A DNA stretch of 64,000 bases, from positions 68,441-132,440 of the forward strand of contig JBIICI010000001.1 of assembly GCA_044238935.1 (NCBI GenBank). Reading direction: 5' to 3'. Under the pieces are notes generated by a model, which made no database searches, was not told the origin of the DNA, and was given only the letters and a program-made list of their open reading frames with translations. Positions 2,692-61,421 of this stretch are shown in pieces. This DNA is from Gemmobacter sp. GTDB lineage: Bacteria; Pseudomonadota; Alphaproteobacteria; Micavibrionales; Micavibrionaceae. A program made the translations under genes and the position numbers. Within the stretch, counting starts at the first letter, position 1. Each line of letters opens with the position of its first letter.

Positions 2692-3990
2692 TTATGCTGA
2701 AATGCCTAAAAAGTCAATCTGACATTGCATTTCTTCGTTGCTAAAAGGGTAATCCGTACCTGCGCGCGGGTAAATCAGGTCTTTGTGTGGGATGCGCGCC
2801 ATTTCTTGCTGTAGCTTAAGCGCTAAGCGCATCGGCAGCCCTGCCTTCCACGTCACAGCCACAATCGATTTTGCCGATTGCGCGGCAAAGATGGTCTCAA
2901 TCCCCTTTTGGGAAAACCCACCCATCACAGCAATACAGGCTTGCACAAATTCATAATCACGCATGCCTAAAGCATCGGCAACAAAATCCGCGTTTAACAC
3001 GCCCTCTGATTTCAGCTTTCGGGCGCGTTGTAACAGGCTTTGTGGTGTTTGTGGTTCAATGTGATTTTGGTGATCTGTGGCATATTGCAGGCGACGTTCA
3101 ATTTTATCCCCCATTTCTTTTAAGGTTTCATCTTCTAAAACCCCGCTTTTTTCCAATAATTGCCGCACAGTTCTACCTGCAAATTCAAAGAGCAAGGAAG
3201 CAGCCTCAGGCGGTAAAGATTGACGTTTTGCCAAAGATTTCTGCCATTCTGGGGTTGTCTTTGATTTCTGAATAATGATCTGCAACAATTCCATGCTTAA
3301 AAACGCATTTTCATTTTCAATCAAACGGCGACCTGCTTTGGCATCATTCGTATCAATAATGGCTGTACTGACGGAATCGCTCACTATTTTACGGCTGGCA
3401 ATGGCTTGGATCACCCAACTGGCAGGGTGTGAGGATAAAATATCCAACAAAGCCTGATCATCTAACGCCACACAGAACCGCAAAATAGGCTCAGAAACGG
3501 CTTTTTCAACGTCTTTTGCTAATTTCGAGGCAATTTCTGGCGGCGTACATGTATAATCTTTGAGCGTAGAAGAAAGCGCAATCCGAATTTTTAACACTTC
3601 ATCTAATGCCAAAGAACTCAGTGCCTGCACAGCATACGCATAGAGATGGCTTTGTTGGTCACGGGATAGATCAGGCAAAAGCTCCAGCAACCGTCTTGCC
3701 AGCGTAAAGCGAACATATTCGCTTTTATCCTGTGCCAATAATGGGCTGGCATGAAGAGGGGTGGAGGGGTTACCTGCAACTTCTTTACGCACACGCGGAT
3801 CTGGATCTTCTTGCGCTAAATAATATAAAATTTCACGGCTGGTCTGACTGTCGCGCGCCAAGCTGATGCGCGATTTTACATGATCATGTTTCAGTTTTTC
3901 TTTTTGGATTTGATAGGCATCACTGTTTCTATCAGATGATGGATCACCTTTTTTATTCGGATTTATAAAATCAAAGAATTTTTGGAACAT
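2692..3990 (-). CDS. DUF2336-like helical-repeat protein (conserved alphaproteobacterial hypothetical)
   Basis: 432-aa ORF with a HEAT/ARM-like N-terminal half (..YYLAQEDPDPRVRKEVAGNP..). The C-terminal block ..FVQACIAVMGGFSQKGIETIFAAQSAKSIVAVTWKAGLPMRLALKLQ.. resembles DUF2336 proteins as I recall them. Confidence 0.45.
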   Translation of the reverse strand: MFQKFFDFINPNKKGDPSSDRNSDAYQIQKEKLKHDHVKSRISLARDSQTSREILYYLAQEDPDPRVRKEVAGNPSTPLHASPLLAQDKSEYVRFTLARRLLELLPDLSRDQQSHLYAYAVQALSSLALDEVLKIRIALSSTLKDYTCTPPEIASKLAKDVEKAVSEPILRFCVALDDQALLDILSSHPASWVIQAIASRKIVSDSVSTAIIDTNDAKAGRRLIENENAFLSMELLQIIIQKSKTTPEWQKSLAKRQSLPPEAASLLFEFAGRTVRQLLEKSGVLEDETLKEMGDKIERRLQYATDHQNHIEPQTPQSLLQRARKLKSEGVLNADFVADALGMRDYEFVQACIAVMGGFSQKGIETIFAAQSAKSIVAVTWKAGLPMRLALKLQQEMARIPHKDLIYPRAGTDYPFSNEEMQCQIDFLGISA

Positions 3991-40754: not shown

Positions 40755-41378
40755 ATGATTTTTCACAAAGACTTTAAACGCCTTCCCACCAATGATTTAT
40801 CCATCATATGGCCACAGGTGCAGAAATATTTTTCTGAATTACCCGATTTAAATCAAGATTTGGTCGTTTTTGGACGAGATGTTGCCTTTTATCCAGATTA
40901 TAAAATCTTGGAAATTGCCTCTCAACAAACATTACCTGCAACGGTTCATTATGTTTTATATCATAAAGAAAAAAATCATTTTGTGCGTTTAGATTGGTCA
41001 ATTGATGCGATTTTATCGTTAAATCAAATTGCCCCCCTGAATTTAAATGATGATAATATTTTAGATTATGTTGAATATTATTACATGACCACCACATCGG
41101 CGCACGGCATGTTAGCATTGATCAATAATATTGACGATATTATTTGGAACGAAGATCCCCCCTTACAGGTGCGCCGTGAAATCATGAAAATGATTATTCC
41201 ATTGACGATTACAGAATTTACCCATGATGGATATTGGATGTTACGCGCAAGCTTTTTACACCGTCAATCTTTGTTCCAAGCAGATTTGAAATTACATTCA
41301 GATGGCACAATCATCAGCTATAATCACGAACTTATCCTTGAGGATTTACCCGTGATGGATATTATTTTGGGGCAATAA
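40755..41378 (+). CDS. Hypothetical protein (origin-adjacent ORF)
   Basis: 207-aa ORF with no motif I recognise. It occupies the position of the conserved hypothetical gene that flanks Cori opposite hemE in Caulobacter and Rickettsia; homology was not verified. Confidence 0.35.
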   Translation: MIFHKDFKRLPTNDLSIIWPQVQKYFSELPDLNQDLVVFGRDVAFYPDYKILEIASQQTLPATVHYVLYHKEKNHFVRLDWSIDAILSLNQIAPLNLNDDNILDYVEYYYMTTTSAHGMLALINNIDDIIWNEDPPLQVRREIMKMIIPLTITEFTHDGYWMLRASFLHRQSLFQADLKLHSDGTIISYNHELILEDLPVMDIILGQ

Positions 41379-41578
41379 TTGTTTAGTTATTCAAATATTT
41401 TTTCAACCTTTTATCAAGCATTTTTTGAACACAAAGGGGTCTGTTAGAAAATCAAGGAACATAATGTTCTTTATCTTTTTTTAGTGCTCTTTAAGGATTA
41501 GAAAGAGAAAAAGATATAGACAAAAATTATTTAATACCTTATGGTGATTTCCTATATAAAATAAGGAGGGAAATTACC

Positions 41579-41923
41579 ATGAGACCAAAAATTATAAAGA
41601 AATTTGGATTAGAATTATCTGTGCAAAGAGTCTATGATTTAGAGAGTAAAAAACGACAGTTTGCTGTTAGTTTTCATTTTAATGAAGCTGGACAAACATT
41701 TATTGGAATTGACAAAAATCTACGAAGTGCAGTAGAGAATTTTACTGAAGCCTGTGTTGTAGGACGCTTTCTAAACAAAGCCCCTATAGACATCTATGAA
41801 ATTTTTTCTTGTAGCGAAGTAGCTGTACCAAGAAACAATATCTTTGGTTATCAAATCCGTAAATTTTTTGGTCTCCCTTACAAAGACCCAAGAGATAAAA
41901 TGAAATTCTTTTATCATTCCTAA
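41579..41923 (+). CDS. Hypothetical protein
   Basis: 114-aa ORF preceded by a strong Shine-Dalgarno (AAGGAGGGAAATTACCATG). It is AT-rich with no recognisable motif. Confidence 0.4.
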   Translation: MRPKIIKKFGLELSVQRVYDLESKKRQFAVSFHFNEAGQTFIGIDKNLRSAVENFTEACVVGRFLNKAPIDIYEIFSCSEVAVPRNNIFGYQIRKFFGLPYKDPRDKMKFFYHS

Positions 41924-43504: not shown

Positions 43505-44707
43505 ATGAATATCCATGAATATCAGGCAAAAGAACTCTTGAAACACTATGGCGTTGCTGTTCCCGTTGGCTATCCTGCCCTAACGGTTGATGAGGCCGTG
43601 GCCGCTGCCCAAAAACTAACAACCCCTGTTTTTGTGGTGAAATCCCAAATTCATGCAGGCGGTCGTGGGGCAGGGCATTTTAAAAATAATCCCACAGGCA
43701 AAGGCGGTGTTCGCGTTGTTAAATCAGTTGATGAAGTCAAAGCTGCCGCCCAAGAGATGTTAAACCAAATCTTGGTGACCAAACAAACAGGGGCTGAGGG
43801 CAAAGAAGTTCAGCGTTTATATATCGAAGAAGGCTGTAACATTGCCCGTGAACTCTATTGCGGTATTTTACTGGATCGCGCCACATCGCGCGTGACCTTT
43901 ATGGTTTCCACCGAAGGCGGTATGGATATTGAAGAGGTCGCCCATCACCACCCTGAAAAAATTATCAAGGTTGCTATTGATCCTGCCACAGGGATGCAAG
44001 CCTTTCATGCGCGCAAATTAGGCTTTGCTTTGGGATTATCCGAACAAGCCATGAAAAAATCTGTCAAATTTATGTTGGCGATGTATAAAGCCTTTGTGGA
44101 TTTAGATGTGTCTATCTTGGAAGTCAACCCGTTGGTGATTACCGCAGATGAAGATGTCATTGCCCTTGATGCAAAGATGAATTTTGATGATAATGCTTTG
44201 TTCCGTCATCCCAATGTTTTGGCACTGCGTGATATTACAGAAGAAGATGAAAATGAGCGCGAGGCCACAGATAACGAATTATCCTATGTGCGTTTAGACG
44301 GCAATATTGGCTGTATGGTCAATGGCGCAGGCTTGGCGATGGCAACGATGGATATTATTAAACTCAGCGGCGGCGAGCCTGCAAACTTCTTGGATGTTGG
44401 CGGCGGCGCCACCAAAGAACGCGTGACAAAAGCCTTTAAAATTATTCTATCTGATCCCAACGTAAAGGGCATTTTGGTGAATATTTTCGGCGGCATTATG
44501 CGCTGTGATATTATTGCTGAGGGCGTCATTGCTGCTGCGAAAGAAGTGTCCTTAAACGTCCCCTTAGTCGTCAGATTGGAAGGCACAAATGTGGAATTGG
44601 GTAAAGAAATTTTAGCCAAATCAGGCCTACCGATTGTCTCTGCGGATAATTTGGCGGATGCAGCGGTTAAGGTTGTGGCAGCAACAAAACAGGCCATGGC
44701 GGCGTAA
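43505..44707 (+). CDS. sucC: Succinate--CoA ligase (ADP-forming) subunit beta
   Basis: 400 aa with N-terminus [12 protein letters not shown] and ..[18 protein letters not shown].. Confidence 0.97.
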
Positions 44708-44721
44708 AATAGGATTATGAA

Positions 44722-46416
44722 GTGGATCAATCTGCATTAAAAAATCTCCTTCATCAACTTATCGCAAAAGGCGAAAATGAAACGGTTGATTTTAAGAGAA
44801 CAGCCGATACAGATAAGATTGGTCGTTATTTTTCGGCACTTTCTAATGAAGCTAATCTTCAAAATCTTGATACAGCTTGGTTAATTTTGGGGGTTGATGA
44901 TAAAAGTCGTGATCTAATCGGATGTTCGGCTTATCTTGATAATGAGAGTCGTACAGAGCTTAAGAAAAAAATTGCACAAAACTTATCACCACCTTCTATG
45001 AATTTCAGGAATATCCACATTCTTGAAATAGATCAAAAAAAGATCATTTTGCTCTTTGAGATTCCACCTGCTCCTCTTGGCATCCCTGTATTTTGGAAAA
45101 AAGTTGCATATGCGCGTAGTGGCGATAGTATTGATAATCTTTCAATAGGCAAGCAGGATCAAATTCGAAACCAAGAACCAATAGATTGGTCATCTGAAAT
45201 TGTACCTGAGGCAACATTAGAAGATTTAGATGAAGAAGCCGTACAAAAAGCACGACACATTTTCGCTCAGAAAAACCCTAATTTTAATGATAATGATGTA
45301 AAAGATTGGGCAACTCAGATTTTCTTGGATCGTGCCCATCTTACGCGTCAAGGAAAAATCACAAAATCAACTTTACTATTATTGGGAAAAGCAGAATCAT
45401 CATCTTTGCTTTCTCCGCATCCTGCACGAATAACATGGAAATTGGAAGATCACATTCCAGATTATGCACATTTTGATCCTCCGTTTCTTTTATCTGTTGC
45501 TAAACTCTATCAAAAGATCCGTAATCGCCAAATCAGTCTTTTACCAAGAAACCAGCTTTTATCCGTTCAGATACAGCAATATGACCAAAAAGTTATATTA
45601 GAAGCTCTTAATAATTGTATCGCGCATCAGGATTACAGAAAAAATGCTCGTATTATCGTTCATGAAAAACCAGATAAACTGATTTTTATAAATTCTGGAT
45701 CGTTTTTTGATCGACACCCTAATGATTACATAGAGGGAGATTCAATTCCCCTGAAATACCGTAATTCTTTTCTAACAAAATCAATGAGTGTATTAGGGAT
45801 GATTGATACAGTCGGATACGGTATTTATCAAATCCATAAAATACAACGACAACGGCATTTACCGATGCCAGATTATGATTTATCCGAGGCTGACAAGGTT
45901 TCTTTAACAATTTATGGCAATGTAATTGATAGCGCATATAGCCAGCTTTTGATGGAAAATACAGATCTTTCACTCTTGGAAATTATCTCTCTTGATCGGC
46001 TACAGAAAAAAAGACCTATTTCTGCTGAAATGACTGCTCAACTCAAACGTAAAGGGCTTATAGAAGGAAGAAAGCCAAATTTTTATATTGCCCCTTCTAT
46101 TGCTAAAACCAAAGAAGATCGTACGCGATATATGATGGAGCGTTCGATTGATGATAATCACTATAAAAAACTTATTTTAGATTATCTAAAAAAATTCAAG
46201 GCGGCCTCAAAAAATGATTTAGACGACTTTTTAAAGCTAAAAATCAGCGATCGCTTAAATGATGCACAAAAAATAAAGAAAATCGCTAACTTATTAACTA
46301 GCCTAAGGCGTGAGGGCGTAATTTATAATAATGGCAGTAAAAAATACCCATCTTGGAAAATATCAAAAAATGATAAATTGCAGAATAAAAGAGGCGAATT
46401 GCAGAATAAAAAATGA
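44722..46416 (+). CDS. AlbA_2 (Schlafen-type) + HATPase_c_4-like putative DNA-binding regulator ('RecG-like' in many annotations)
   Basis: 564 aa with a GTG start 14 nt after the sucC stop. N-terminal pattern: ..ENETVDFKR..IGRYFSALSNEANL..AWLILGVDD..; central pattern: ..EALNNCIAHQDYRKNARIIVHEKPDKLIFINSGSF.. The C-terminus is basic, possibly a wHTH-like region. Confidence 0.62.
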   Translation: MDQSALKNLLHQLIAKGENETVDFKRTADTDKIGRYFSALSNEANLQNLDTAWLILGVDDKSRDLIGCSAYLDNESRTELKKKIAQNLSPPSMNFRNIHILEIDQKKIILLFEIPPAPLGIPVFWKKVAYARSGDSIDNLSIGKQDQIRNQEPIDWSSEIVPEATLEDLDEEAVQKARHIFAQKNPNFNDNDVKDWATQIFLDRAHLTRQGKITKSTLLLLGKAESSSLLSPHPARITWKLEDHIPDYAHFDPPFLLSVAKLYQKIRNRQISLLPRNQLLSVQIQQYDQKVILEALNNCIAHQDYRKNARIIVHEKPDKLIFINSGSFFDRHPNDYIEGDSIPLKYRNSFLTKSMSVLGMIDTVGYGIYQIHKIQRQRHLPMPDYDLSEADKVSLTIYGNVIDSAYSQLLMENTDLSLLEIISLDRLQKKRPISAEMTAQLKRKGLIEGRKPNFYIAPSIAKTKEDRTRYMMERSIDDNHYKKLILDYLKKFKAASKNDLDDFLKLKISDRLNDAQKIKKIANLLTSLRREGVIYNNGSKKYPSWKISKNDKLQNKRGELQNKK

Positions 46417-46488
46417 ATTATATCGTTGTATATCATATAGTTAAGTCTTTAAATTGCAGAATAAAAGAGGTGAATTGCAGAATAAAAA
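46375..46488 (+). repeat. Direct duplication of a 38-bp segment (1 mismatch), each copy holding two AATTGCAGAATAAAA units
   Basis: Copy 1 is 46375-46412 and overlaps the last codons of the AlbA_2 gene. Copy 2 is 46451-46488 and is intergenic. The four 15-bp units start at 46376, 46397, 46452 and 46473, with 21-bp phasing inside each copy. Confidence 0.85.
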
Positions 46489-46576
46489 CGTCTTAAGTCT
46501 TGCTCTTTTGGATTTATTCCCTTAAGTTATAAGCACATATCTTTTATATAATTTACTGCATTTAAGGATCATCATC

Positions 46577-47458
46577 ATGGCCGTTTTAGTTGGAAAAAAC
46601 ACAAAATTAATTTGCCAAGGTTTTACAGGCGCACAGGGCACGTTCCATTCTGAACAAGCCATTGCCTATGGCACGAATATGGTGGGGGGTGTAACCCCCA
46701 ATAAAGGCGGGACAAAGCATTTGAATTTGCCTGTATTCAATACAGTGCATGAGGCTGTGCATGTCACAGGCGCAAATGCAACGGTCATTTATGTACCGCC
46801 AGCCTTTGCAGCGGATGCAATTTTGGAAGCCATTGATGCCGAAATTGAACTGGCAGTTTGTATCACCGAAGGAATCCCTGCCCTTGATATGGTGCGTGTT
46901 AAACGTGCTTTGCAAGGCTCAAAAACGCGCCTTGTTGGCCCAAACTGCCCCGGTGTGATTACCCCCGGTGAATGTAAAATCGGCATTATGCCCGGTCACA
47001 TCCATAAACGCGGCAGCGTGGGCATTGTTTCCCGTTCAGGCACATTGACGTATGAGGCCGTGGCACAAACAGGCGCGGTCGGCTTGGGGCAATCCACCTG
47101 TATTGGGATTGGTGGCGATCCAGTGAACGGCACGAACTTTATTGATTGTTTGGAATTATTCCTCAATGACCCTGAAACTGAATCCATCTTAATGATCGGT
47201 GAAATCGGCGGTACTGCGGAGGAAGAAGCGGCAGAATTCTACAAAGCATCCAAGATCAAAAAACCCATCGCGGGCTTTATCGCAGGGGCAACGGCGCCTG
47301 AAGGCAAGCGTATGGGACATGCTGGTGCGATCATTTCAGGTGGACAAGGCACAGCAGAATCAAAATTTGAGGCCATGCGCCGCGCGGGATTCGTTGTTTC
47401 CAACAGCCCCGCAGGATTGGGAACAGCGGTGCTGGAAGCCATTAAAAAGGCAGCCTAG
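46577..47458 (+). CDS. sucD: Succinate--CoA ligase subunit alpha
   Basis: 293 aa with ..[35 protein letters not shown].. and the catalytic-His region ..MGHAGAII.. Confidence 0.97.
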
Positions 47459-47485
47459 AGCTTTTTTAAGAAATTCTGTATCCTT

Positions 47486-47522
47486 TCGTCCTGCATTTGA
47501 AAGATTGCAGGACGATTTGTAT
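47486..47522 (+). terminator. Intrinsic terminator after sucD
   Basis: 10-bp stem TCGTCCTGCA/TGCAGGACGA (47486-47495 and 47506-47515), a 10-nt loop, then TTTGTATTT. Confidence 0.7.
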
Positions 47523-47567
47523 TTATGATATAGTCATTCCTAATAAAAAACACAGGGTATTTTTAAA

Positions 47568-50129: not shown

Positions 50130-51041
50130 TTAAAAAAGTTGTAAAATCATACAACGTGCGGAACCGCCGCCATGTTTTTCGATTGTATCTAAAGGTGCAG
50201 AAACAATATTATCAATATATAATTTCAGCGTGTCTTTTTGAGGCAATGTTAGGGATTGTTCAGCCTGTTGGGACATTACCAATAATCGTGCACCCTGTGC
50301 ATTTTCAATTTCTAATGCATTCCCACAAAAAGATAGAATTTGATCCATGCTCAGGTCAATAATGATATGGGTTTGCGATAGGCGACCAATAACGCGCTCA
50401 CGATCATCGGGGGCAATTGATTCCGTACATAGCCCCGCATATCCTGTGCCAATATACATGATAACATTCGTATGATAAACCTGCCCACCTGTGTGATCAT
50501 AGGCAGAAAAAGCAATGGTTTCATATCCATAGACTTCCCCCCATTGCGCAAATAAACGCGCATCCAGTCGGGGGGATATACAGCCATAGGCAACACGGTG
50601 AATATGATCAATAATAATCGTGCCCGTGCTTTCTAGGATCTGTCCCTGTTGTTCATAGGTCGATAGATCACCAATGATTTGGTAACGACGATTTAACCAG
50701 TCAATAATAGCAGGACGACGTTCCAAACGACGATTTTCTGCCATCATGGGATATAAAATATACCCGTGATTTATGGGATCATCATGGGTCGATACCCAAT
50801 TATTGGGGAATAAATCATCAGGGCTGTCGGCTTGACCTAAAAAAGTTGTCACATTCGCGCCTGCATTGACCAATGCATCACGGAAATTCCGGAATTCTTG
50901 TCTAGCTTGCTGCTGAATCTTGATAATATCGGCATCATGAACATGATGTTGATAATGATTGCTGGCGGCTGTTTGGGGATTGCAGCCAAAGGCAACGGGT
51001 TCGATCATCAGCAAATCACTGGTGGACTGACGAACGCGCAT
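50130..51041 (-). CDS. Amidinotransferase/arginine-deiminase-superfamily protein (CtlX-like)
   Basis: 303 aa. The C-terminal catalytic-Cys motif ..HGGGSARCMILQLF is typical of the guanidino-group-modifying enzyme fold. Confidence 0.5.
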   Translation of the reverse strand: MRVRQSTSDLLMIEPVAFGCNPQTAASNHYQHHVHDADIIKIQQQARQEFRNFRDALVNAGANVTTFLGQADSPDDLFPNNWVSTHDDPINHGYILYPMMAENRRLERRPAIIDWLNRRYQIIGDLSTYEQQGQILESTGTIIIDHIHRVAYGCISPRLDARLFAQWGEVYGYETIAFSAYDHTGGQVYHTNVIMYIGTGYAGLCTESIAPDDRERVIGRLSQTHIIIDLSMDQILSFCGNALEIENAQGARLLVMSQQAEQSLTLPQKDTLKLYIDNIVSAPLDTIEKHGGGSARCMILQLF

Positions 51042-56462: not shown

Positions 56463-56536
56463 GCGGGTGTAGCTTAGTGGTAAAGCTCCAGCCTTCCAAG
56501 CTGGCCATGAGGGTTCGATTCCCTTCACCCGCTCCA
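56463..56536 (+). tRNA. tRNA-Gly (anticodon UCC), CCA encoded
   Basis: Folded by hand. Acceptor GCGGGTG/CACCCGC, D arm GCTT..AAGC, anticodon stem CCAGC/GCTGG with loop CTTCCAA, T arm GAGGG-TTCGATT-CCCTT, discriminator T plus CCA. Length 74 nt. Confidence 0.93.
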
Positions 56537-56622: not shown

Positions 56623-59160
56623 ATGTCACAATCCCCATTCCCGATCCTTGATAAAAACCTTGACCTTGCTGCGCTGGAGGAAGAGTGCCGCACCTTATGG
56701 CAGGATAGAGGGGTTTATGATTATGACCCCAATTCGTCAAAGCCAACATTTTCGATTGATACGCCTCCGCCTTATGTATCGGCGGCGCATTTGCATGTGG
56801 GGCATGCGATGTCGTACACACAGGCGGAAATTGCCGTGCGTTATAAACGCATGAAGGGGTTTAATATATTTTATCCGATGGGATTTGATGATAACGGGCT
56901 GCCGACGGAACGTTACGTTGAGCAAACCTATAATATTGATAAAAAGAAAATCACGCGCTCAGAATTCCGCAAACTCTGTATGGAGGAGACCGCGCGCGGC
57001 GCAGTGGCGTATGAGAAATTATGGCGTGCCATGGGATTATCCGTGGATTGGTCGTTGCGTTATTCCACTATTGACGATCATTGCCGCCATGTGGCGCAAA
57101 AATCATTCCTTGATCTGTATCATAAAGGATTGGTCAAGCGCGAAAATGAGCCTGTGTTGTGGGATACGCATTTTGAAACTGCCCTTGCGCAAGCGGATTT
57201 AGATACAATCACACGTACAGGAAAAATGGTCGATATCGCCTTTGATGATGGTGCAGGAAACGCGCTGGTGATTTCCACCACACGCCCTGAACTCTTGCCT
57301 GCCTGTGTGGGACTGTTTGTGCATCCTGAAGATAGCCGTTACACGCATTTACACGGCAAAAACGCGATTGTTCCGATTGCAGGGCATTCCGTGAAGATTT
57401 ATACATCCGAAGATGTCGATCCTGAATTTGGGACAGGGTTGATGATGTGCTGTACGTTTGGGGACGGCGAAGACGTTAAGAAATGGAAAGCGCATCATTT
57501 GGAAACGCGCTTTATCTTAACGCCAAATGGGCGTATGAATGAATTGGCAGGCGCGTACGCAGGCTTGCCGATTGTGGAGGCACGTGCGCGGATCATTAAA
57601 GATTTAGATGCCGCAGGGCTGCTCTTGGGTCAAAAACCCGTGCAGCAAAATGTATCCGTGGGGGAGCGATCCGGTGAGCCTGTGGAATTTATCCTTGCGC
57701 CGCAATGGTTTATTCAGGTGATGAATCATAAGGAGTCTTTCCTGAAACGCTCTGCCGAGTTAAAATGGTTTCCCGATTGGATGAAAACGCGTCTGGATCA
57801 GTGGATTGAGGGGTTGAAATATAACTGGAATATCTCCCGTCAACGTTTTTACGGTGTACCGTTTCCGATCTGGTATGTGCAGGAAACTGGCGATGTGATT
57901 GTTGCCCAAGAATCCGATCTGCCGATTGATCCCATGGAATCTGCTCCCCCTGCTTGGGCGGTGGAAAAATATAAGGGGCTGACGATTGTGCCGGAAAGCG
58001 ATGTCATGGATACTTGGATGACCTCCTCCCTATCCCCCTTAATTAACGCCAACTGGACAAATACCCCCAATCGTAAGGGGGATATGAGCATTTACCCGAT
58101 GTCCTTACGCGTACAGGGGTTTGAGATTATCCGCACATGGTTGTTTTATACAATGGTCAAATCCGATTTCCATACCGATTCCCTGCCATGGGAAAATGTG
58201 ATGATTTCAGGCTGGGGATTAAATGAGCAAGGCAAGAAAATATCCAAACGCGATTTGGAAAAATTCACCGATGCCGATGGATATAATCGATACGAGCCGT
58301 ACGCGTTGATTGAAAAATACGGCGCCGATGCCGTACGTTACTGGGCATCCAACAGCCAATTAGGGCATGATCTGAAATTCCTTGAGAAAGACGTCAAAGA
58401 CGGCCGCAAAATCGTGGTTAAACTATGGAATGTCGCGCGGATGGCGTTTATCTATTTGGATGGCTTTAATCCCAAAACCGATCTAATCCCCATATCTGAA
58501 AGATTAGCAGAAGATCAATGGATACTGCACGAACTCTCCAAAGTCAATGCGCGCATGAGCGAATCTTTTGAAGCCTATGATTACGCCACAGGAAAAGAAG
58601 CGTTAAATCGTTATTTCTGGATGGCATACTGCGATGATTATTTGGAACTGATTAAATCCCGTTTCTGGGTCGAGGCAGGGCGCAGCGACCAAGACCGCCG
58701 CAGCGCACAATCCACCTTATATGAGAGTTTGCGCGTGTTATTGGGACTCTTCGCGCCCTATATCCCCTATATCACCGAATCCATCTATCAAAAAGCACAT
58801 TGTTTCGGCGAAAACACACGATCCCTACACCAAACCGCATGGCCGTCTTTGGCCGTGCAGGCAGATGAGGGCACACTAAAAACCGCCGACACGATCCGCA
58901 AAGTCCAAGATATTGCCCGCAAATTACGCTCCGATCAAAAAATCGGCATGGGCACAATGGTGGACTCCCTCACATTCTATGACCCCAACAGCCTGCTAAA
59001 ATCCATTGACCCCAAAATCCTATGCGGCGCGGCACGCTGTACGCATATCGGATTTACCGATCAAGGGATAATCAATGAGGGCGAAGAGTTTGCAGCCACC
59101 CTAAAGGCCTATGAAGACGGCGCTGCACCAACGATGACAAGTATGGTGTCGTTTGGGTGA
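56623..59160 (+). CDS. valS: Valine--tRNA ligase, archaeal/Rickettsia-type
   Basis: 845 aa. HIGH region ..TPPPYVSAAHLHVGHAMSYTQAEIAVRYKRMKGFNIFYPMGFDDNGLPTE.., editing-domain block ..STTRPELLPACVGLFVHPEDSRY.. and ..FGTGLMMCCTFGD.., KMSKS variant GKKISKRD. Confidence 0.88.
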   Translation: MSQSPFPILDKNLDLAALEEECRTLWQDRGVYDYDPNSSKPTFSIDTPPPYVSAAHLHVGHAMSYTQAEIAVRYKRMKGFNIFYPMGFDDNGLPTERYVEQTYNIDKKKITRSEFRKLCMEETARGAVAYEKLWRAMGLSVDWSLRYSTIDDHCRHVAQKSFLDLYHKGLVKRENEPVLWDTHFETALAQADLDTITRTGKMVDIAFDDGAGNALVISTTRPELLPACVGLFVHPEDSRYTHLHGKNAIVPIAGHSVKIYTSEDVDPEFGTGLMMCCTFGDGEDVKKWKAHHLETRFILTPNGRMNELAGAYAGLPIVEARARIIKDLDAAGLLLGQKPVQQNVSVGERSGEPVEFILAPQWFIQVMNHKESFLKRSAELKWFPDWMKTRLDQWIEGLKYNWNISRQRFYGVPFPIWYVQETGDVIVAQESDLPIDPMESAPPAWAVEKYKGLTIVPESDVMDTWMTSSLSPLINANWTNTPNRKGDMSIYPMSLRVQGFEIIRTWLFYTMVKSDFHTDSLPWENVMISGWGLNEQGKKISKRDLEKFTDADGYNRYEPYALIEKYGADAVRYWASNSQLGHDLKFLEKDVKDGRKIVVKLWNVARMAFIYLDGFNPKTDLIPISERLAEDQWILHELSKVNARMSESFEAYDYATGKEALNRYFWMAYCDDYLELIKSRFWVEAGRSDQDRRSAQSTLYESLRVLLGLFAPYIPYITESIYQKAHCFGENTRSLHQTAWPSLAVQADEGTLKTADTIRKVQDIARKLRSDQKIGMGTMVDSLTFYDPNSLLKSIDPKILCGAARCTHIGFTDQGIINEGEEFAATLKAYEDGAAPTMTSMVSFG

Positions 59161-61421
59161 TGAATAGTCGGGTGATGAATAGTGATGGCGCGATAAAGGA
59201 AAGAAAGCACGATAAACTTGATCGTGCAACTCTTGCTGAAAACACCGCAGAGTCAATCGTGAAATTACCCGTGGATGAGATCAGTTTTGTTATTGGGGTT
59301 TATGGCAAATGGGGATCAGGGAAAACATCTTTTCTTAATTTGATCGTTGAGGCATTAAACGGCAAGAGGCGTAAGCCGTTTCAGACTCTAAAAATTAGAC
59401 AAAAAATCCGAAAAATAAAATTCGTCGTTAATTATTTCTTTCATAAGGATTTTTGTAAACGAGTTATAAAATCTGTGCAAGATTGGCACTCAAAACCTGC
59501 TATTATTCATTTTAAACCATGGTTGTTTTCAGATTATGCAGACTCCAAAAAACATGGTGATTTAATCGATCATTTTTTTGATGAACTTAAAAATCAATGT
59601 TTCAAAGGCTTTCACGGGATTGTTTTCTGGAACGGATGGCTGTTTTCAAATTATCAGAAATCAATTTCATCTTTGAATCCATCCTTATTTCTAAAATTTA
59701 GATGGGGATTATTTTTTATTGCCATGTTTTTAGCGATTAACATTATCCCCTTCTTAAAAGAATTTTTTGAATCTTTTATAAACCAAACCTTGGCGATACA
59801 GTTTTTAAATCAGTATGAATTTTTTAAAAAGAGCGTATTTACTCCTTTAGCCATACTAAGTGACCTATCATTAAAAGATATATGCGGCAGTATTGCATTG
59901 GGGCTTTTTTGTATTTGGGGTTTTTGGTTCCTTGAACCCAAATCTCCGGCTGACAATCACGACAGAATCAAAGATTTTCTCAAAAACTCCAAGCGTAAAA
60001 TCGTTGTTATTATTGATGATATTGATCGACTAGAACACACCCAAATCATGGATGTTTTTCGATTGGTCAAGTCCGTAGCAGATTTCCCGAATATGATCTA
60101 TATCCTTGGAATGGATATAGATCAGGTTGCGCATTTATTACAAGAACATTACAAATACCAAAATGGTCGTGAATATATTGAAAAATTTGTGCAATATAAC
60201 CTATCTTTACCCCCTATATATGGAGAAGAACTGCTTGATCTATTTGAAAAAGAACTATCTGATCAAAAAGTTTTTATAGATAAAATAGATCTAAAAGAAA
60301 GATGGGAAGTGGGCAGTGCTCGCAAATATTTACGCAAACGATTAAATAGTTTCACTATTCGCAGCGTTAACCGTTTAGCCAATAAGATTGGATTTGATTA
60401 TCGTGCTATACAGGGTCATGTTGATTTAATTGATTTTATTGTTTTATCTTTTATGCGCGACTATGATCCAGAGATTTTTTGGTTTTTAGAAAAACGCGAA
60501 AGAGGCTTGAGTACAGTAGATAAGTTTTCATATTATCTGCATAACAAAGGACAACAAATAACTTTCTTAGAGTCTTTCCTTGAAGACAATCCTTCTTTCA
60601 AAGCAAAAAATTATATGTATAAAAAAAATTTGGAAGATATTTTTAAATATCTTACCACGGGTCAGCATGTAAATTCTTTTTCACAAAAAAGTGCAGCTTA
60701 TTTCAAATATTTGCCCCCATCCTATTCTATTAATCGATCAACTTTAGAAGAATTAGTTGCGCCTGAAACATTAAAGAATAAAGATGAATTCAAAAGAAAA
60801 TTCCAAAATCTTTGTGATCAATATGAAATGCCGACAGTGGCACATGAGTTAAACCCGATAGTCAAGTCGTTCGTTGAACCCAGCGATAGGCTTGATGAAA
60901 AAAGACGACTGGATTACTATAATTGTCTTCTTTATAGCTTCAAAGAGGCAAAATTTAATTTTGATGGTTTCTTTGTAGGCAATTTCTGTCAAGAATGGAT
61001 GCCTAGTGTCTTGGAAGAAATCCAGCTTGAGACTAAAACACAAGGTTTGTGGATGTACCTAGATTGGTGTCGTATCTTTTCGAAAAACAATAAAATTCCT
61101 ATCTCTGAAACGAAAATAGATGAAGTTAAGAAACTTATTCACCAATCCACGGACGATCTACCAGATGATTATCGTTTTATTGCTTATACAATCCCATGGT
61201 TCTTTAGTGGTTCTGGATTAGATCAATCAGGAATTAAATTAGTTAATGATATTTTAGAGCAGAAAAAAGAGTCTATCATTGAGGCTATAAAAAGAAATCA
61301 TAATTTTAATCTTCCATTTCAAATAAAATCAGACTCTGTGGCAACATCATTTTTTAAAATGCTTAAGCAGGAAGATGACTCTTTAGAAATCATTTTTAGA
61401 GATAAAGAGCCTTGGACGTAG
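59157..61421 (+). CDS. KAP-family P-loop NTPase (membrane-inserted)
   Basis: 754 aa. Walker A GVYGKWGSGKTSFLNL, hydrophobic helices (..WGLFFIAMFLAINIIPF.., ..GSIALGLFCIWGFWFL..) inserted before Walker B KIVVIIDDIDRL, as in KAP NTPases. The start is ambiguous: GTG 59157, ATG 59160 or ATG 59175. Visibly AT-rich. Confidence 0.72.
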   Translation: MMNSRVMNSDGAIKERKHDKLDRATLAENTAESIVKLPVDEISFVIGVYGKWGSGKTSFLNLIVEALNGKRRKPFQTLKIRQKIRKIKFVVNYFFHKDFCKRVIKSVQDWHSKPAIIHFKPWLFSDYADSKKHGDLIDHFFDELKNQCFKGFHGIVFWNGWLFSNYQKSISSLNPSLFLKFRWGLFFIAMFLAINIIPFLKEFFESFINQTLAIQFLNQYEFFKKSVFTPLAILSDLSLKDICGSIALGLFCIWGFWFLEPKSPADNHDRIKDFLKNSKRKIVVIIDDIDRLEHTQIMDVFRLVKSVADFPNMIYILGMDIDQVAHLLQEHYKYQNGREYIEKFVQYNLSLPPIYGEELLDLFEKELSDQKVFIDKIDLKERWEVGSARKYLRKRLNSFTIRSVNRLANKIGFDYRAIQGHVDLIDFIVLSFMRDYDPEIFWFLEKRERGLSTVDKFSYYLHNKGQQITFLESFLEDNPSFKAKNYMYKKNLEDIFKYLTTGQHVNSFSQKSAAYFKYLPPSYSINRSTLEELVAPETLKNKDEFKRKFQNLCDQYEMPTVAHELNPIVKSFVEPSDRLDEKRRLDYYNCLLYSFKEAKFNFDGFFVGNFCQEWMPSVLEEIQLETKTQGLWMYLDWCRIFSKNNKIPISETKIDEVKKLIHQSTDDLPDDYRFIAYTIPWFFSGSGLDQSGIKLVNDILEQKKESIIEAIKRNHNFNLPFQIKSDSVATSFFKMLKQEDDSLEIIFRDKEPWT

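Follow-up and report, generated by a model that had tools for sequence, protein, structure and literature searches.

The 64,000-nt stretch of Gemmobacter sp. contig JBIICI010000001.1 analyzed here (the window) carries a gene of the Schlafen type between sucC and sucD, the genes for the two subunits of succinyl-CoA synthetase. Coordinates given without a contig name, and a ranking of 47 open reading frames (ORFs) given below, refer to the window. The sucC gene (43505–44707, plus strand) encodes a full-length beta subunit of 400 aa with matches to ATP-grasp_2 (2.4e-74) and Ligase_CoA (4.9e-38), and its product is 73–75% identical to alphaproteobacterial SucC. The sucC stop codon (44705–44707) is followed by a left junction of 14 nt (44708–44721, plus strand), in which a Shine-Dalgarno-like AGGA at 44710–44713 lies 8 nt before a GTG start codon at 44722. 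The inserted gene (44722–46416, plus strand) ends with a TGA at 46414–46416 and encodes 564 aa. It was identified as a prokaryotic Schlafen of the Schlatpase-HTH (helix-turn-helix) type using Pfam, an AlphaFold2 model and Foldseek. A spacer of 160 nt (46417–46576) separates the inserted gene from the ATG of sucD at 46577. The last 88 nt of this spacer (46489–46576, plus strand) contain an AAGGA at 46564–46568 ahead of the sucD start and no terminator. The sucD gene (46577–47458, plus strand) encodes a full-length alpha subunit of 293 aa with matches to CoA_binding (3.4e-30) and Ligase_CoA (4.1e-28), and SucD is up to 88% identical to its relatives. The positions of sucC, the 564-aa ORF, the spacer and sucD that had been given in a preliminary description of this DNA, made from the letters alone, all hold on re-reading the sequence.

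A hairpin with a T-rich tail (47486–47522, plus strand) follows sucD and is the likely terminator of the unit. Its stem spans approximately 47486–47515, with a minimum free energy of –23.1 kcal/mol (z = –5.2). The terminator scan returned no plus-strand terminator-like site between the inserted ORF and sucD, in agreement with the initial statement that none precedes the hairpin behind sucD. The predicted folding of the spacer RNA is not stronger than that of shuffled sequence (z = 0.17). Promoter-like sites were fewer in the scan than in shuffled controls; none of them was on the plus strand of the spacer, where no convincing –35/–10 pair was found either. An Rfam search of the region gave no match. 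The anatomy is compatible with co-transcription of sucC, the inserted gene and sucD, which is plausible. The inserted gene would then be read from the sucC promoter in a single transcript that ends at the hairpin behind sucD.

Two Pfam domains were identified in the product of the inserted gene, and both exceed their gathering scores, as expected from the original domain calls. SLFN_AlbA_2 (PF04326) is found at residues 18–139 (E 2e-13, 51.3 bits, cut-off 25.3) and HATPase_c_4 (PF13749) at residues 310–396 (E 1.9e-8, 34.6 bits, cut-off 26). AlphaFold2, run with 27 homologues, gave a model with a mean pLDDT of 77.8. From the order of its secondary-structure elements, the C-terminal part (45931–46362, plus strand) is predicted to contain two winged-helix-like modules at approximately residues 404–456 and 480–547. 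Both modules are modeled as helix-helix-helix-hairpin, and local Foldseek matches to MecI (1okr) and 2mh2 have a probability of 1.0 with weak E-values. No HTH match was found by Pfam in the C-terminus. The best full-length Foldseek match is DIP2311 of Corynebacterium diphtheriae (PDB 3LMM, structural genomics; E 3e-19). The model shares the multi-domain layout of DIP2311, but the two proteins are only 15% identical, a likeness undetectable by sequence; a PDB sequence search with the inserted protein found nothing. The other Foldseek matches are to the N-terminal domains of SLFN14, SLFN11, SLFN5 and SLFN12 (human and pig) and to histidine-kinase ATP-binding domains. The inserted protein is composed of an SLFN_AlbA_2 domain, a GHKL ATPase and a winged-helix tail, which is the Schlatpase-HTH architecture. 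The superfamily 2 helicase core (DEAD/Helicase_C) and the wedge domain were not found, PF04326 and PF13749 being the sole Pfam matches. The name 'RecG', under which some relatives are deposited in the source databases, is thus a mis-annotation, as had been suspected.

The codons for E18-N-E-T-V-D23-F-K25 (44773–44796, plus strand) provide the Ex4(E/D)xK nuclease motif of Schlafens as defined in PMC13056530. Residues E18, E20 and K25 are invariant in 80–81 of the 81 homologues aligned, and position 23 is aspartate in the window protein and glutamate in the others. The GHKL N-box, EALNNCIAHQDY, corresponds to residues 294–305 (45601–45636, plus strand), where E294 and N298 form an ExxxN pair; E294, N298, H302 and D304 are invariant in 81/81 homologues. 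In RzAgo, E314 and N318 are the ExxxN pair that binds Mg2+ and the gamma-phosphate, according to a preprint on SLFN-pAgo systems (bioRxiv 10.64898/2026.05.29.728809). By the ExxxN pattern alone, E294 and N298 would correspond to these two residues.

The order SLFN_AlbA_2-GHKL-HTH is that of the commonest prokaryotic Schlafen type, named 'pSlfn fused to HisKinase-HTH' by Perez Taboada et al. (2026, PMC13056530). The SLFN-pAgo preprint uses the name 'Schlatpase' for the supradomain with a short C-terminal HTH. The inserted protein resembles this class in the order of SLFN_AlbA_2, the PF13749 GHKL domain and the C-terminal HTH, in the Ex4(E/D)xK and ExxxN motifs, and in the horizontal spread of its family and the links to restriction-modification (R-M) systems and islands. 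It departs from the class in its setting, a core metabolic operon where no defense gene adjoins it. The Pfam pair AlbA_2 and HATPase_c_4 is also found in TrlG of Photorhabdus laumondii (PMC7554251), which likewise has been mis-annotated as RecG and has a patchy distribution. TrlG, likened here by its Pfam architecture, belongs to a three-gene unit, trlR-trlF-trlG, between polA and dsbA. Because loss of TrlG permits Photorhabdus to grow at 36 °C (PMC7554251), intact TrlG restrains growth.

Relatives of the inserted gene were collected using an alignment as the query, and a search of the genome contigs with the inserted protein alone gave two remote matches only. At 50 of the 83 homologous loci the gene X is flanked by mod and res, the genes of a type III R-M system, with all three on the same strand (mod-X-res), and an hsdS-X-hsdR arrangement was found at a minimum of 5 loci. 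Other orthologues adjoin other methyltransferases, a TOTE-type primase-helicase or housekeeping genes such as mnmE. The three best homologues are in mod-X-res or MmeI-type-X-helicase arrangements, inside islands with integrase, Prim-Pol or AbiE genes. The usual habit of the family is to be wedged between two genes of one operon. A stand-alone setting had been called typical of this architecture; the neighborhood analysis places the orthologous group typically between mod and res instead. The orthologue usually starts 0–12 nt past the stop codon of mod, and the inserted ORF thus brought along no more than 14 nt of DNA from upstream. No R-M gene was found in the window, where the gene is flanked by sucC and sucD instead, and the window copy is therefore orphaned.

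PrrC is a latent anticodon nuclease that is encoded within the EcoprrI type Ic R-M locus. It is an effector that cuts tRNA and is located between R-M subunit genes, the position that most orthologues of the inserted gene occupy in their mod-X-res and hsdS-X-hsdR settings. The protein families are unrelated, the nuclease and ATPase folds differ, and the window copy has no R-M partner. No PrrC-family match to the inserted protein was found in Pfam, PADLOC or NCBIfam. The mod-X-res position of most orthologues points to a partnership with restriction enzymes that may be PrrC-like. A guard-type mechanism such as that of PrrC would be an analogy of position only.

The GC content at third codon positions (GC3) of the inserted gene is 0.252, the lowest of the 47 window ORFs of at least 150 aa (z = –3.4), and its overall GC content is the second-lowest of this set. 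Two plus-strand ORFs of 207 and 114 aa at 40755–41923, upstream of mntH and without a Pfam match, lie in DNA of approximately 30–35% GC locally. Because this DNA is similarly low in GC, low GC alone is not unique to the inserted gene, and GC3 is the distinguishing statistic. The sucC-sucD loci of other genomes and metagenomes were also compared, using the 127 loci in which both genes were found; in further loci no sucD was found within the available downstream sequence. A homologue of the inserted gene is present at 0/127 of these loci. Its relatives, at approximately 52% identity, are distributed over Alpha-, Beta-, Gamma- and Deltaproteobacteria, Bdellovibrionota, Chlorobi, Acidobacteria, Verrucomicrobia, Bacteroidota and others; some are on plasmids and a few on viral contigs. 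The lowest GC3, the absence from all 127 other loci and the occurrence of relatives across many phyla, plasmids and viral contigs identify the inserted gene as foreign and horizontally acquired. The foreign insertion proposed at the outset thus stands on composition and on the loci compared. The opposite situation, the same gene with native codon usage between sucC and sucD across a broad clade, was not observed.

That the inserted gene has instead long been a regular part of this lineage's sucCD operon is highly improbable and already contradicted. Such a gene would be expected in all contigs recovered from the source organism, where the gene is indeed found. It would not be expected to be missing from every other sucC-sucD locus, to be a GC3 outlier, to have relatives that are linked to R-M systems and spread horizontally, or to exist as the frameshift allele described below. 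No close relative with an empty sucC-sucD site was found, the nearest being at 75% identity for SucC (genome and metagenome contigs) and 88% for SucD (protein database).

The distance between sucC and sucD varies among the 127 loci. It is 80 nt or less in 91/127, more than 100 nt in 34/127 (approximately 27%, up to 1.66 kb), and 87 and 98 nt in the remaining two. The two genes had been described as almost universally adjacent, which is too strong for these relatives. The occupants of the longer gaps are mutually unrelated; Paracoccus and Phenylobacterium, for example, have same-strand ORFs of approximately 190 aa there, and a 'Rickettsiales' metagenome-assembled genome has three small ORFs. 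In each of the loci of the two closest SucD relatives (87–88% identity; L089, 4594–6758, and L091, 4983–6788) an opposite-strand gene separates sucC from sucD; the first encodes 550 aa and has no Pfam match, and the second encodes 601 aa and has a weak SLT match. The two genes at this site bear no relation to each other, even though the SucC proteins of the two hosts are 90% identical, and the sucC-sucD site is a variable spot in this lineage. The GC content of the gap is below that of the flanks in every sucC-sucD case examined. The textbook adjacency is corrected accordingly, in that the alphaproteobacterial sucC-sucD junction often holds unrelated genes.

The insertion is present in every contig recovered from the source organism. 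A polymorphic site was identified at G45394 (45394, plus strand), which is not in a homopolymer and is deleted in three metagenome contigs. The deletion splits the gene and yields ORFs of 236 and 336 aa. Three proteins in the cluster of the window gene (P0241, P0242 and P0245) end in the common shifted peptide GKANHHLCFLRILHE. Contig L253 (sample 3300042691) is 99.8% identical to window positions 43558–45749, lacks G45394 and shows the normal backbone. Contig L252 (sample 3300028430) is 99.7% identical to positions 44297–47529 and has the same deletion. A third contig encodes the same shifted peptide as these two, and the three frameshift contigs are from different samples. The window, an NCBI assembly and a third JGI sample all carry the intact allele. 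In a comparison of the window with L252 over 44297–47529, the inserted gene shows 2 nonsynonymous and 0 synonymous changes in addition to the frameshift, and sucD shows 0 nonsynonymous and 4 synonymous changes. Because frameshifted copies occur in natural strains, the inserted gene is evidently dispensable to the host. The preliminary description had called the insertion fixed; this agrees with its presence in all recovered contigs, but the gene itself is not uniformly kept. A core tricarboxylic acid (TCA) operon can thus carry a foreign, potentially toxic nuclease gene, which natural strains are already inactivating.

Both ends of L252 depart from the window. At its left end (1–160; window 44152–44296) sucC is strongly divergent before 44297, the break falling at a conserved coding stretch, and this end may be a recombination mosaic or a chimeric assembly. 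At its right end (3388–3528) L252 matches the window to 47529, past the sucD terminator, and continues into a different ORF (MKQRKNKYYYGSHISEAKFRQLLRCFGLDLNA), which we take to resemble the N-terminus of an insertion sequence (IS)-type transposase.

A repeat array not mentioned in the preliminary description was identified at the 3' end of the inserted gene (46374–46488, plus strand). It is composed of a 39-nt direct repeat (46374–46412 and 46450–46488; 38/39 bases identical) in which four copies of AATTGCAGAATAAAA lie at 46376, 46397, 46452 and 46473, two in each unit. AATTGCAGAATAAAA occurs four times in the window, always in the array, against 0.86 copies expected by chance. The four copies of TTGCAGAATAAAA in the array form two pairs with 21-nt spacing. 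An AT-rich box, TGTATATCATATAGTTAAG, is located at 46427–46445, between the two 39-nt units. The first unit is translated as the last 12–13 codons of the inserted ORF. Homologous proteins are 551–552 aa in length after correction of their stop codons, and the family's array spans from the stop to approximately +110. The window ORF, unlike the class as a whole, lacks the usual stop of the family and reads 12 codons into its own array. The two 39-nt units of the window resemble each other more closely than the repeat pairs at other loci do, which suggests a recent local duplication or homogenization. The 39-nt repeat was considered as a target-site duplication and rejected, both copies being on one side of the gene and the array being typical of the family. 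A 9-nt direct repeat, TTAAGTCTT, at 46441–46449 and 46493–46501 flanks the second 39-nt unit, and a related TTAAGT is found at 46522–46527.

The short motif of the array is also found at the stop codon and just downstream in homologues from unrelated bacteria. Over the 83 loci, TGCAGAA on the gene strand has a density of 5.6 per kb in the interval –80 to +250 relative to the stop codon and 0.18 per kb elsewhere, the stop codons in this count being first estimates made before their positions were corrected. Variant motifs at other loci are TGCAGAG, TAAGAAAG/TACGAAAG and AAGAATAA. A purine-rich core, AGA[AG][AT][AG]AA, is shared by the variants, and the window array is of the phased-repeat type seen in the family. 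Three or more exact copies of a 7-mer within 220 nt were found at 52/84 loci and in approximately 4% of control windows. The repeat spacings peak at 11–12, 21–22 and 31–33 nt, which is helical phasing, and the clusters are at the 3' flank of the gene in 66/72 cases. In an alignment of 17 arrays the AT-rich box is conserved, and an inverted copy of the motif often precedes the last two direct copies; the window array has the box and lacks the inverted copy. No consistent –35/–10 pair could be read in the conserved box across the loci. The motif class is the same as that of the nearest neighbor in 33/50 cases, a co-variation with protein clades that is inseparable from shared descent. Expanded arrays were observed at L243 (7554–7650), L246 (7690–7900) and L201 (6342–6400), in the form of nine tandem copies of TTAAGAAAGAAA, more than 10 copies of TGCAGAA, or six copies at exact 11-nt spacing, and the array can evidently grow like a microsatellite. 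No earlier description of this family-wide phased array was found, and the available portions of PMC13056530 and bioRxiv 10.64898/2026.05.29.728809 do not describe a conserved 3' repeat array. The array offers a handle on the regulation or triggering of the commonest bacterial Schlafen class.

One explanation of the array is that the protein is a DNA-binding controller, whose winged-helix tail on the phased repeats would set the expression of the next gene (res in R-M systems, sucD here). The arrays are confined to the stretch between the gene and the following gene, and their spacings are multiples of approximately 10.7 nt, as expected for a protein on one face of the DNA. The AT-rich box and the frequent inverted copy within the array, the core kept across motif variants, the nearly invariant predicted recognition helices and the label 'transcriptional regulator' carried by some relatives in the source databases are consistent with such a role. 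A simple controller, however, would not require the family-invariant nuclease motif and ATPase, and the window spacer offers no convincing plus-strand promoter pair. Moreover, frameshifted strains lack the winged-helix part and retain an intact sucD under purifying selection, so sucD expression cannot depend on the inserted protein. This explanation is considered unlikely.

It is improbable, to a greater degree, that the ORF and its array are a small mobile module that inserts between co-directional genes with the repeats as recombination sites. The tight unit is found at mod|res, hsdS|hsdR and MmeI-type|helicase junctions, after mnmE and at sucC|sucD, always co-oriented with its neighbors, and the array accompanies the ORF. 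Recombinase, transposase and integrase domains are nevertheless absent from the protein according to Pfam, there is no target-site duplication around the unit, and function alone can account for the linkage with R-M genes.

In the reading that we favor as probable, horizontal transfer brought a Schlatpase-HTH gene, together with its own 3' phased array, into the short space between sucC and sucD in a low-GC alphaproteobacterium. Because the array is typical of the family at the 3' flank and the left junction is tight, the unit that moved was the ORF with its 3' array and no more than 14 nt on the left. The protein would act like characterized Schlafen effectors, as a latent growth-arrest or anti-phage effector without an R-M partner, and its winged-helix tail would bind the TTGCAGAATAAAA repeats. 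The host would not need the gene, and the frameshifted copies in natural strains are accommodated.

Several observations weigh against this reading. No R-M or other partner gene stands beside the window gene, and the protein may be unable to work as its relatives do. It is an outlier and the most divergent member of the class seen, with 52.5% identity to homologues that average 70% among themselves. Of 178 otherwise-invariant positions, 29 are changed in the window protein (16%, against 0–5% in any other member), including E323I at a position that is acidic in 79/81 homologues. This divergence could reflect relaxed constraint. NCBIfam gave no match and PADLOC only a weak partial match to an Argonaute-associated model, and neither provides a family call. 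The array is a candidate binding site of the winged-helix tail on its position and phasing only. Schlatpase-HTH proteins are so far not known to protect against phage. In PMC13056530, seven systems from four architecture groups were expressed, one group being the histidine-kinase-type fusions, and only a DUF262 fusion and an immunoglobulin (Ig)-like fusion protected.

Some of the same observations would fit a decaying passenger, that is, a single insertion whose R-M partner is gone, whose function is lost and which is being eliminated, the window copy being merely unbroken. The frameshift allele in contigs of three different samples, the altered invariant positions, the lost stop codon with its extension of 12 codons into the array and the absent partner gene all agree with this account. 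In opposition to it, 564 codons remain open in DNA of 35% GC at approximately 47% divergence from all relatives, which speaks for purifying selection during most of this divergence. Every residue with a published catalytic counterpart is retained, and a good number of the substitutions are conservative and in line with AT pressure (R to K, V to I). Decay is a possibility to be taken seriously, though on balance a doubtful one.

For the acquired gene and array, a further proposal is made tentatively and with considerable reserve. The ORF and the phased array may form a self-contained sensor-regulator-effector module, in which the tail would read TGCAGAA-type repeats and the module would control the following gene. 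If so, these repeats would be the first cis partner to be recognized for the most abundant bacterial Schlafen class, for which no trigger is known. The wiring of the module would also have been transplanted onto sucD, linking a subunit of a TCA-cycle enzyme to a defense-type switch.

Other features of the window were recorded outside the sucC-sucD region. A minus-strand gene at 50130–51041 matches the model of a eukaryote-type dimethylarginine dimethylaminohydrolase (PF19420, 1e-74) and adjoins sugar-nucleotide epimerase and beta-helix genes. A tRNA-Gly(TCC) gene at 56463–56536 is followed by an archaeal-type valS at 56623–59160 (NF009687, 1.4e-278), which has the highest GC3 of the window (0.523). 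A gene for a KAP-family P-loop NTPase (59157–61421) overlaps valS by 4 nt, has a GC3 of 0.288 and matches the PADLOC model PifA (7e-58). It is a second defense-type, low-GC gene directly behind a housekeeping gene.

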